A stretch of DNA of 64,000 nucleotides, from positions 1 through 64,000 of the forward strand of contig JAXGPA010000006.1 of NCBI GenBank assembly GCA_040767195.1, given 5' to 3'. The position numbers were made by a program. Shown one piece after another: positions 9,001-12,000 of this stretch. Positions within the stretch are counted from its first letter, which is position 1. Each line of letters starts with the position of its first letter. The DNA comes from Syntrophales bacterium (GTDB lineage: Bacteria > Desulfobacterota > Syntrophia > Syntrophales > UBA6807).

Positions 9001-12000
9001 CTCGATGGACTTTCCCCGAAGGGACCGGACCACGTCTCCCGGGCGTGTGGCCCGGCCGCCGGGAAGGTTCTCCGCGGCGGGAACGACGGCGGACACGTTC
9101 AGGGGGAGGCCGAGATCCGCCGCCGCCCGCAGGGCCGCCAGGACGGCCGCGCCGCCGGCCATGTCGTCCTTCATCTCGTGCATCCGCTCCGCCGGTTTCA
9201 GGCTGATCCCGCCGCTGTCGAAGGTGACGCCTTTCCCCACGAGGACGACGGGCTTCGCCTTCCGGCCCCCGCCCCGGTACTCGGCGAGGATGAGTTTCGG
9301 CGGTTCGTCGGAGCCTTTCGACACGGCGAGAAGGGCGTTCATGTTCATTTTTTTCAGGGCCGCCCGGTCAAAGACGGTTACCTTGAGGGGCCGGCCCTTC
9401 GCCATGTCCACGGCCCGGCGGGCCAGGAGGCCCGGTGTCATATCGTTGGCCGGCATGTTAACGAGGTCCCGGGCGAAACGGACGGCCTCGGCGACGGCTT
9501 TTCCCGCCTCCAGGCCCTTCGTGGCGAGGGCCTTTCCTTTACGGGACTCTTCAAGGAAAAGGAGGCTTTTCAGTTCCTTCTTCGACTGGTCGTCCTTCTC
9601 CCTGTAAAGGTCGAACCGGTAGAGGCCCAGGAGGGCCCCTTCCGCCGCCGCCCGGGCGATCGCTTCCGGGCCCGCCGGCAGCGCCCCGGGATCGAGGGAC
9701 AGGGCCGCCTCGGACACGCCCCGGTCACGCAGGGCCCGCACCGTCCCGGCCACTCCCTCCCGGAACCTTCCGGGGTGGAACTCCTCTTTCTTCCCCAGGC
9801 CGAAGACGGCGATCCGGGGGGACGGGAGGGCGCCCCGCCCGTCGAGGATCGCCACCTGGCGGCGCTTGCCCTGGAAGGCCTCCCCTTTCAGCCGCTCCGC
9901 GAGGGTCCCAGAAAGGGCGGCGTCGACCGAGGACGCGCCCCCTTCCAGCGGTTCCATTCCTTCGAAAACGGAAACGATGACGGCCTGGGAAGCCACTTTC
10001 GCCGGGCCCTGCGCTTTGACGGTGAATTTCACGGGGGACGCTCCTTTCTTCGTGTCGGTAAAACCCGCCGGAAACGGTTTTCTGAACATAGCGGCCGGGG
10101 GTGAAAATGTCAACGGACGAACGGAATCCTCTAAAAAAAGCAGCCGCGGGTTTTCGACCATGAGTTTTCTTTACATCGGGCATCTTTTCCAGTATAGAAC
10201 CGGCAAGGCGTGTCAAAGGCGCGAGGAGGGCCCCCTTGGAAATCCGCCTGAAATCCTGTCCCAAAACCTACGTTAGGGAAACCCACCGGTCCCGCACCCC
10301 GGAAGAGACGCGGCTCTTCGTGAACCGGATGAAGTCGGTCCTGGAGATGCGCGATTTCCGCGAGATCTCTTCCCTGGACAGGATCGGCATACCCGTCTTC
10401 ACCTGTCATCGCGTCCGCCCCGACGGTTCCCGGACGGACCACACGGGAAAGGGTCTGAGCCCCGTGCAGGCCGAGGTGTCCCTGACCATGGAGTCGGTGG
10501 AGCGCTATTCCTCGGAATACCGGGACGTGTGGAAGCCGGGACTGGTTCGCGGGAGTTACCGCGACCTGTGCCGGCAGGAACCCGTCGTCGACCCGGAGGA
10601 CCTCATCCTTCCCCGGGGAAGCAGTTACGCGCCGGACCGGCCCATTCACTGGGTCCGGGGATATGACCTCCTTCAAGGGGAGGACATCCTGGTTCCCGCC
10701 TTCGAGGTCTACCACCCCTTCCCCCTGGACGACCCCCCGATCATCGCGACCCACACCAACGGCATCGCCTCGGGCAACACCCTGGAAGAGGCGGTCTTCC
10801 ACGGCCTGACGGAGGTCATCGAGCGGGACGCCTGGAGCCTCACCAAGTACCGGGAGGAACCGGGCAGGGCCCTCTATCTCACCCCCTCCGAGGACACGCG
10901 CTTCATCACCGAAATCGTCGGCCGTTTCGACGGGGGGGACGTGGAGGTCGTGGCGAAAGACATCACGTCCGACCTGGGCGTCCCGGTCGTGGCCGCCTTC
11001 TCCCGGGACCTGGTTTACCGGAACATGATCCCCATCGACGGGTTCGGGAGCCACCTGGATCCGCGGGTGGCCCTCGCCCGGGCCCTCCTGGAAATCGCCA
11101 CGACCCGGGGGCTGTTTTTCCAGAAGCTGGGCCCCGCCGGGGCGGAAGCCGGCGCGACGGGCTACGTGGGCGACAGCTGGAACGACGAGGACTGGCGGTT
11201 TCTGGCCGACGAAGAGGCATCCCTCGACGACATGGACGCCCGGTTCAGCGGGGACATTCTGACGGACATCGAGACGGTTCTTGACCGGCTGCGGGAAAAA
11301 GGCTTCCGGCGGGCCGTGGCCGTGGACCTGACCAGGGACGAGACGAAAATCCCCACGGCCCGGATCATCGTCCCGGGAATGGAAGTGTACTGCTTCGATC
11401 CTTCCCGGCGGGGCCGGCGCCTGGCGGAGTCGTAAGGAGGCGGAACCATGCTTGAGGAAAAGGAAATCGCCGAACGGCTCGAGTACTGCTACCTCGTTTA
11501 CTGCCAGCTCGTGGCCCTTCAGATGAACGAATCCGTCGAGCCCTTCGAGTACATCTCGACCCTGAAAAACTCCTCCCTTCACATCGAGGAGGACGGGTTC
11601 ATCGGGGTCTCCCTGAAGGACGGCCTCGTTATGGGAATCGAGGACGGCGGGCTCTCGAACCTGGTCAGCCTTTACGAGGGATTCGTCCACGCCTTCTGCG
11701 AGGTCCTCGAAACGGACATGGAAGCCGTGAAAAACGCCATCCCCGGGGATATCCTTGAGAAAATCATCCGGGAAGTCAACCCCAGGGCGAAGGTCTGAAC
11801 CCTTCGCCGGAAGACAGGGCACGCGGTATGACCGAAGAAATCAGAAAAAAAGACGGCGACCCCGGAAAATCGGCTTCCTTCTGGCGGAAATGGCTGGGCC
11901 CGTTCGATGAGACGGGCGAGGGAGCGAACGGCGACGAGAGGGGAAGCCTCCCGGAAACGCTGGCGTCTCTTTTTCAACATGTCCTCGACGGCGTCCTCGT

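Follow-up and report, generated by a model that had tools for sequence, protein, structure and literature searches.

A TfuA-less, methanogen-related YcaO of Syntrophales with a conserved small neighbor and a CoA-transferase as candidate target

What does a methanogen-related YcaO do in a bacterium whose genome yields no methyl-coenzyme M reductase (MCR)? In YcaO chemistry, a nucleophile attacks a backbone carbonyl, which is followed by ATP-dependent O-phosphorylation and elimination; when sulfide is the nucleophile, a thioamide results. According to the available part of Rice et al (2026; PMC13063428), natural backbone thioamides have been reported in only two proteins, McrA and uL16. The role of a protein backbone thioamide is still debated. 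For the locus described here, the reading we prefer, with a probability of roughly 0.4 for the whole, is TfuA-independent thioamidation of a CoA-transferase (termed CoAT-X) by a retargeted YcaO, with a small protein as an accessory; homology, linkage, and co-occurrence point to it. The window, i.e., the whole stretch of DNA analyzed, comprises positions 1–64,000 of contig JAXGPA010000006.1 from a Syntrophales bacterium (GCA_040767195.1; 98.8% complete, 13 contigs), and all coordinates count along it:

8509..10029, minus strand: leucyl aminopeptidase PepA (Pfam/NCBIfam profiles), a divergent neighbor that does not belong to the conserved unit, being present at 9 of 80 loci
10224..10229, plus strand: ribosome-binding site of ycaO, AGGAGG, 6 nt ahead of the TTG start
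10236..11435, plus strand: ycaO, stand-alone YcaO of 399 aa with TTG start (Pfam PF02624, TIGR03266 below cut-off, AF2, Foldseek, trees)
10440..10442, plus strand: His69 of YcaO (alignment), invariant in 79 clade members
10491..10505, plus strand: E86-x-x-E89-R90 motif of YcaO, invariant in the clade and methanogen-type sets
10755..10829, plus strand: T174–D198 core segment of YcaO, ending in E193-x-x-E196-R197-D198, invariant in both sets
11100..11141, plus strand: residues 289–302 of YcaO, TTR[AG]LFxQKxG, putative substrate-recognition region (alignment)
11434..11440, plus strand: ribosome-binding site of the small gene, AAGGAGG, overlapping the ycaO stop codon
11448..11798, plus strand: small gene with ATG start, encoding a family-less protein of 116 aa (AF2 pLDDT 94.5; 59 of 201 genomes)
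11828..13669, plus strand: PAS/HD-GYP-type protein (Pfam/NCBIfam profiles), a neighbor locally only
13723..15628, minus strand: two-subunit family I CoA-transferase, a 30–37% identical paralog of the ycaO-linked type (CoAT-X)

Both open reading frames, of 399 and 116 aa, lie exactly where a preliminary description of this DNA had placed them; they are separated by 12 nt, and each is preceded by an AGGAGG-type ribosome-binding site. RNA-library contigs from four runs (two studies) span both genes and their junction; as the same contigs cover the whole 8 kb, intergenic DNA included, this coverage is no proof of transcription. A promoter and terminator scan gave no signal above chance for ycaO or the small gene. 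Profile searches of the window genome found this single YcaO, no TfuA above the cut-off, and no match to the McrA model PF02249 at E ≤ 1, which agrees with the earlier statement that TfuA and MCR are missing. The ThiS/MoaD and ThiF genes of the genome are situated away from the ycaO locus.

The YcaO matched Pfam PF02624 over residues 71–383 with 262.6 bits (gathering threshold 25.7; E = 7e-78). TIGR00702, which had been named as the only NCBIfam family, was indeed the sole NCBIfam model whose cut-off was passed, but the best-scoring one was TIGR03266, describing the YcaOs of McrA-glycine thioamidation (295.6 bits, below the cut-off of 365). Ten further members of the clade scored between 285 and 310 bits with this model, all below 365, and the methanogen-type comparison sequences, originating from metagenomes, gave between 403 and 552 bits (35 of the 50 scored). 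The closest solved sequence is MJ1094 (179 bits), and the AF2 model of YcaO (pLDDT 89) retrieved 6PEU as the best Foldseek match (E = 2e-32, TM 0.82–0.85, 31% identity). By sequence as well as by fold, the enzymes of M. jannaschii (MJ1094; 6PE3/6PEU) and M. kandleri (6CI7/6CIB), likewise stand-alone proteins of ∼400 aa, outranked cyclodehydratases and the YcaO of E. coli. In all of three trees the clade was monophyletic (support 100) and joined the methanogen-type group, FastTree placing it as the sister of that group and IQ-TREE nesting it beside one of the group's tfuA-linked sequences; an AU test favored neither placement (p = 0.35, 26 rows). The comparison sequences had been gathered by a motif common to the clade and the methanogen-type group, so other YcaO lineages are under-sampled in these trees.

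An ortholog of the clade YcaO was present in 79 of 201 Syntrophales genomes, not counting 11 additional genomes with other YcaO types only, and in 5 of 401 genomes sampled from the phylum; its hosts are Syntrophales and related syntrophs (Syntrophobacterales). TfuA (PF07812) was found in none of the 201 Syntrophales genomes, with M. acetivorans detected as the positive control. At 63 positions, at least 90% of the 79 clade and 50 methanogen-type sequences agree, and these positions include every acidic and basic core residue. Invariant in both sets are K72, S82, E86, E89, R90, E193, E196, R197, R282, E286, and R291, which we take to be nucleotide- and Mg-binding; the E86-x-x-E89-R90 motif presumably has a role in Mg-ATP binding. 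With profiles, shared residues, and trees in accord and the core intact, the proposal of a stand-alone, TfuA-less YcaO related to those of methanogens has held up. His69 of the clade is also found in the aligned enzymes of M. jannaschii and M. kandleri, and 49 of the 50 other methanogen-type sequences have Tyr at this position; M. jannaschii and M. kandleri lack TfuA according to the available part of Nayak et al (PMC5589413), and the histidine common to the two enzymes favors TfuA independence of the clade.

The clade departs from the methanogen enzymes in that it resides in bacteria, is linked to a CoA-transferase operon, and has a novel gene for a protein of 116 aa in the place of tfuA. It also departs in residues 289–302, where the methanogen-invariant QSRxTQIHGxREDT is replaced by TTR[AG]LFxQKxG, which is conserved in its own way; the alignment suggests that this is a substrate-recognition region and, because it is replaced, that another substrate may be recognized. 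Thioamidation without TfuA is favored by the fact that the closest relatives and structures are McrA-thioamidating YcaOs sharing the 63 positions, and sulfur chemistry is further favored by the surroundings of YcaO in 14 of 80 loci, where CysE, CysK, MetY, MetX, NifS, or NifU genes are found (these surroundings are limited to one YcaO subclade, and the small gene is absent there). On these grounds, we consider it likely that the clade YcaO carries out sulfur chemistry.

A different outcome of YcaO catalysis appears quite unlikely, whether the enzyme formed an amidine or azoline, cleaved a backbone with the help of ATP, or activated the amide of a small molecule that enters the CoA-transferase/dehydrogenase pathway. 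It would be in keeping with invariant residues peculiar to the clade (C57, R59, G299), with T289, where methanogens have Gln, and with the catabolic operon setting; every nearest characterized relative, however, makes thioamides, the azoline model TIGR03604 scored 165 bits (cut-off 219), and no E1-like or dehydrogenase partner of azoline-forming YcaOs was among the conserved neighbors at 80 loci. We know of no small-molecule substrate of a YcaO. It is the nucleophile that decides YcaO chemistry, as stated in the available part of Rice et al (PMC13063428), a point in favor of a different outcome. No conserved precursor peptide was seen at the clade loci.

The preliminary description had called the small neighbor conserved, and it was found in 59 of the 201 Syntrophales genomes, 57 of which also have the clade YcaO. 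It directly follows ycaO in 44 of the 78 loci with room downstream (2 of the 80 stop at a contig edge) and in 42 of the 59 small-gene genomes. Clustering of the 80 ycaO loci revealed a third component, CoAT-X, a specific glutaconate-CoA-transferase-like α/β enzyme, whose closest solved relative, albeit a distant homolog, is GctAB of Acidaminococcus fermentans (1POI; E = 1e-48 and 3e-44), with the catalytic Glu motif retained. In 25 of the 80 loci, ycaO, the small gene, and CoAT-X are together (20 co-oriented, 5 convergent); CoAT-X stands after the small gene in these 25, usually followed by an acyl-CoA dehydrogenase gene. The preliminary description had mentioned a CoA-transferase gene simply as a neighbor. 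The copy in the window is a paralog of the type linked to the pair elsewhere; CoAT-X proper is encoded on another contig of the same genome (C1, 314632–316601), away from the ycaO pair.

The small protein itself is predicted to be all-helical, with six helices (AF2 pLDDT 94.5). Neither Pfam nor NCBIfam contained a family above the cut-off, PF07812 did not match at E ≤ 1, Foldseek returned nothing at E ≤ 0.001, the best VIA match (Z 6.0) belonged to generic helical bundles, and the ESM Atlas had no usable match. A profile search of 1.8 billion representatives gave a family of 20 representatives at 50% identity, several of which are fragments. The one internal resemblance concerns its helix 73–94, which matches helix 183–204 of YcaO (hhalign P between 1e-4 and 3e-3; 25 control families between 0.015 and 0.91). 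Descent of the small protein from a fragment of YcaO is nevertheless doubtful, given that the match spans only ∼22 columns, that 5 of 226 block-shuffles reach its score, and that YcaO was missing from the results of both the profile search and the fold searches.

As the smaller gene directly after ycaO, the small gene recalls the YcaO–TfuA pairs of thioamitide RiPP pathways and methanogens; TfuA occupies this slot in 39 of the 44 comparison loci tested (in 8 of 52 no downstream ORF was picked). The small protein could then be a substitute for TfuA that binds or activates YcaO, or delivers sulfur via C14 (55 of 59 homologs) and C84 (57 of 59), whatever the target, which would be partly compatible with the preferred reading. 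The YcaOs that are found among sulfur genes in loci without the small gene fit such a function as well. Unlike in those pairs, however, the all-helical neighbor of the clade YcaO showed no likeness to TfuA in the sequence and fold searches, and it can persist without YcaO: in G301, a complete genome of another family (1 contig, 100% complete) in which no YcaO of any kind was found, the small gene heads an operon with the two CoA-transferase genes (small–CoATα–CoATβ), and its product keeps 21 of 22 conserved positions. Furthermore, 13 of the 17 small genes located away from ycaO are within 6.5 kb of CoAT-X, and 22 of the 79 YcaO genomes lack the small gene, including all 15 of family f7; the YcaOs from loci lacking the small gene group in a single subclade (support 89). 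We consider the role of a TfuA substitute rather improbable.

The same genomes bear on the suggestion in the preliminary description that the 116-aa protein is itself modified. Tight linkage and the presence of YcaO in nearly all small-gene genomes would be expected of an enzyme and its substrate, and the window copy contains an McrA-like stretch around G53. This stretch appears to be due to chance, as Gly is present there in only 5 of 59 homologs; both proteins are acidic (pI 5.1 for YcaO, 4.4 for the small protein); and the intact YcaOs in 22 genomes without the small gene, together with its retention in the YcaO-less G301, argue against the notion. The proposal is thereby weakened, and a substrate role is very improbable. 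The data suggest instead that the small protein is an accessory of the YcaO/CoA-transferase module.

With respect to the target, co-occurrence singles out CoAT-X. It was found in 84 of the 201 Syntrophales genomes (two weak matches left out), in 71 of the 79 YcaO genomes, and in 55 of the 59 small-gene genomes; all three genes are absent from 109 genomes. Among the 401 genomes of the phylum sample, CoAT-X was present in 8, and all 5 YcaO genomes were among those. In G587–G590, which were reached through their ycaO–small gene loci, the pair lies apart from CoAT-X, and CoAT-X is encoded elsewhere in all four (82–86% identity). Thus, CoAT-X is the common denominator of YcaO and the small gene. 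CoAT-X occurs alone, and YcaO and the small gene rarely occur without it, which is the pattern of two accessory factors. Because 13 of the 84 CoAT-X genomes are without YcaO, any modification of CoAT-X would be dispensable. CoAT-X was not found in G062 (98% complete, 30 contigs) or G117 (96%), both of which have YcaO and the small gene. Two further cases, G017, in which a partial YcaO runs into a contig end, and G039, where the copy of the operon dehydrogenase is broken, are no firm counter-examples for these very reasons.

Inside Syntrophales, the distribution of the linked acyl-CoA dehydrogenase is almost the same (57 of 151), and the genomes are non-independent kin, so the co-occurrence may mirror a shared pathway. 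The same thioamide chemistry could accordingly be directed at another protein (the acyl-CoA dehydrogenase, a thiolase, uL16, or a protein encoded elsewhere), with the link to CoAT-X reflecting co-location of a pathway. Neither of the published protein-thioamidating YcaOs is defined by an adjacent substrate gene (for E. coli, see the available part of PMC13063428), and G062 has YcaO and the thiolase. Beyond Syntrophales, however, CoAT-X alone is consistently present: G589 lacks the linked dehydrogenase, and G587 has no close thiolase. As for uL16, Met occupies the same loop context in the protein of the window genome, which would suit such a target. The enzyme that modifies it in E. coli is bacterial, too, and according to the available part of Rice et al (2026; PMC13063428) it acts in vitro on the full protein and not on a RiPP precursor, free of TfuA, with Na2S, ATP, and Mg alone; the same source gives it a length of 586 aa, an additional TPR domain, and a pI of 4.4. 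The clade YcaO resembles it only remotely (E = 8e-5; 21 bits with NF040716, the model of this type, cut-off 700) and belongs to another clade and another genomic context, and its patchy range suits a ribosomal protein poorly. A target other than CoAT-X is on balance unlikely, though it is the alternative we take most seriously; given sulfur chemistry, CoAT-X is the target by a slightly better than even chance.

McrA is modified at Gly465 within LGFFG-FDLQD (available part of PMC5589413). The β subunit of CoAT-X contains DTFG-Y[YF]LQ in all 25 linked loci, which resembles F-G465-F-D-L-Q of McrA; the motif glycine of the window genome's β subunit is Gly107, which follows the catalytic Glu72 by 35 residues. 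The pattern [FY]G[FY]xLQ, drawn after the match was seen, has 3 occurrences across all six-frame ORFs. When scored without bias, the Gly107 site ranked between 1st and ∼300th among 49,000 glycines, and the chance of such a site in the α/β pair ranged from 0.002 to 0.42 (median 0.08; 20 scoring schemes). The motif was intact in all 9 YcaO-less genomes examined, in which no decay of the motif or of any other position was seen. F-x-Y-x-L-Q is a consensus of the broader family, with Ala in place of the glycine in four paralogs of 68–72% identity, and the replacement of segment 289–302 undercuts recognition of an McrA-like motif by the clade YcaO. Gly107 of the β subunit is a tentative candidate for the thioamidation site.

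According to the preferred reading, a backbone thioamide synthase of methanogen ancestry, TfuA-independent and retargeted, would use ATP for the O-phosphorylation of a single backbone amide, whose oxygen would be replaced by sulfide, in line with the mechanism of the family. The protein modified would belong to the acyl-CoA catabolism of the syntrophs, with CoAT-X as the likeliest target, possibly at Gly107 of β. The small protein would assist the CoA-transferase/YcaO module as an adaptor, a chaperone, or a small subunit and would be dispensable in some lineages. In a more speculative version, which is improbable in its entirety, an MCR-thioamidating YcaO of methanogens would have come from the archaeal partners, TfuA would have been dropped and the recognition segment rewired, the thioamide would be located beside the CoA-transferase active site, and the small protein, with a new fold, would present the substrate.

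The preliminary description had held that a bacterial protein target of methanogen-type YcaO chemistry would be new; since uL16 has been published as a bacterial, non-MCR target of a TfuA-less YcaO (Rice et al, 2026; PMC13063428, available part), this novelty is narrower than proposed, although the published enzyme is of the E. coli type and outside this clade. The YcaO network of Rice et al may include the clade. No literature on the clade or on a thioamidated CoA-transferase was found, most subscription papers being outside the coverage of the search. To our knowledge, no CoA-transferase has a backbone modification. As far as searched, the sequences appear to represent a conserved, uncharacterized variant of the protein-thioamidating YcaO type with a novel accessory and a candidate target. 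If the more speculative version is true, CoAT-X would be the third thioamide-bearing protein and the first bacterial metabolic enzyme with such a group, and the small protein would represent a new class of YcaO adaptor. CoAT-X is a concrete and testable candidate from a class of enzymes whose chemistry is well understood, and an effect on catalysis would be directly measurable; the clade also offers a TfuA-free YcaO with a putative new specificity and a possible case of gene transfer between syntrophic partners. Labels such as "methanogenesis marker 1" or "thioglycine synthase" are currently assigned to bacterial genes from genomes without MCR and should be regarded with caution there. The hosts of the clade live in partnership with methane-making archaea.

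A second paralogue of CoAT-X (the glutaconate-CoA-transferase-like enzyme proposed as the YcaO target), 68–72% identical, was present in YcaO-positive genomes (loci L156–L159). Its beta subunit carries Ala in place of Gly107, the candidate modification site, and many pocket changes are common to these paralogues; such a protein represents a natural negative control. A further ORF containing the short [FY]G[FY]xLQ pattern, drawn from the likeness between McrA and CoAT-X beta, lies at G000:C7:154198-155010 in a hydrophobic, membrane-like context.

In one genome lacking YcaO (G301, a single contig of 2.1 Mb), the gene for the 116-aa small protein and those for CoAT-X alpha and beta adjoin tyrS (C1, L337:7723-10075; local GC 36%), which makes this organism the cleanest system in which to ask for the small protein's role. 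Residues 73–94 of the small protein (window 11664-11729) form a helix similar to YcaO helix 183–204 (pattern E-x-x-x-H-A-x-x-E-V-x-E-x-D); this likeness is possibly the relic of a partial duplication, or due to chance.

One subclade of YcaOs that lacks the small gene is housed in a sulfur-assimilation cluster (L072, L079, L090–L092, L095, L100, L101, L111, L134, L139, L140, L142, L143), surrounded by genes for MetY, CysK, MetX, MetW, CysE, NifU, NifS, MOSC, and MnmA; some genomes contain two copies of the YcaO clade. In family f7 (G007, L334:1992-18692), ycaO is the first gene of a cluster that also encodes a metallo-beta-lactamase-fold protein, a MEMO1-like protein, MeaB/B12 mutase proteins, and beta-oxidation enzymes, with CoAT-X ∼14 kb away. 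Other Desulfobacterota harbor a separate clade of longer YcaOs (410–570 aa; L199–L212), for which TIGR03266, the model of McrA-glycine-thioamidating YcaO, scores far lower.

Elsewhere in the window (21882-25748, minus strand), putative genes for a GNAT acetyltransferase, two ATP-grasp enzymes resembling D-Ala-D-Ala ligase, and a KamA-like radical SAM enzyme are consecutive, as labeled by eye from their translations rather than by searches.
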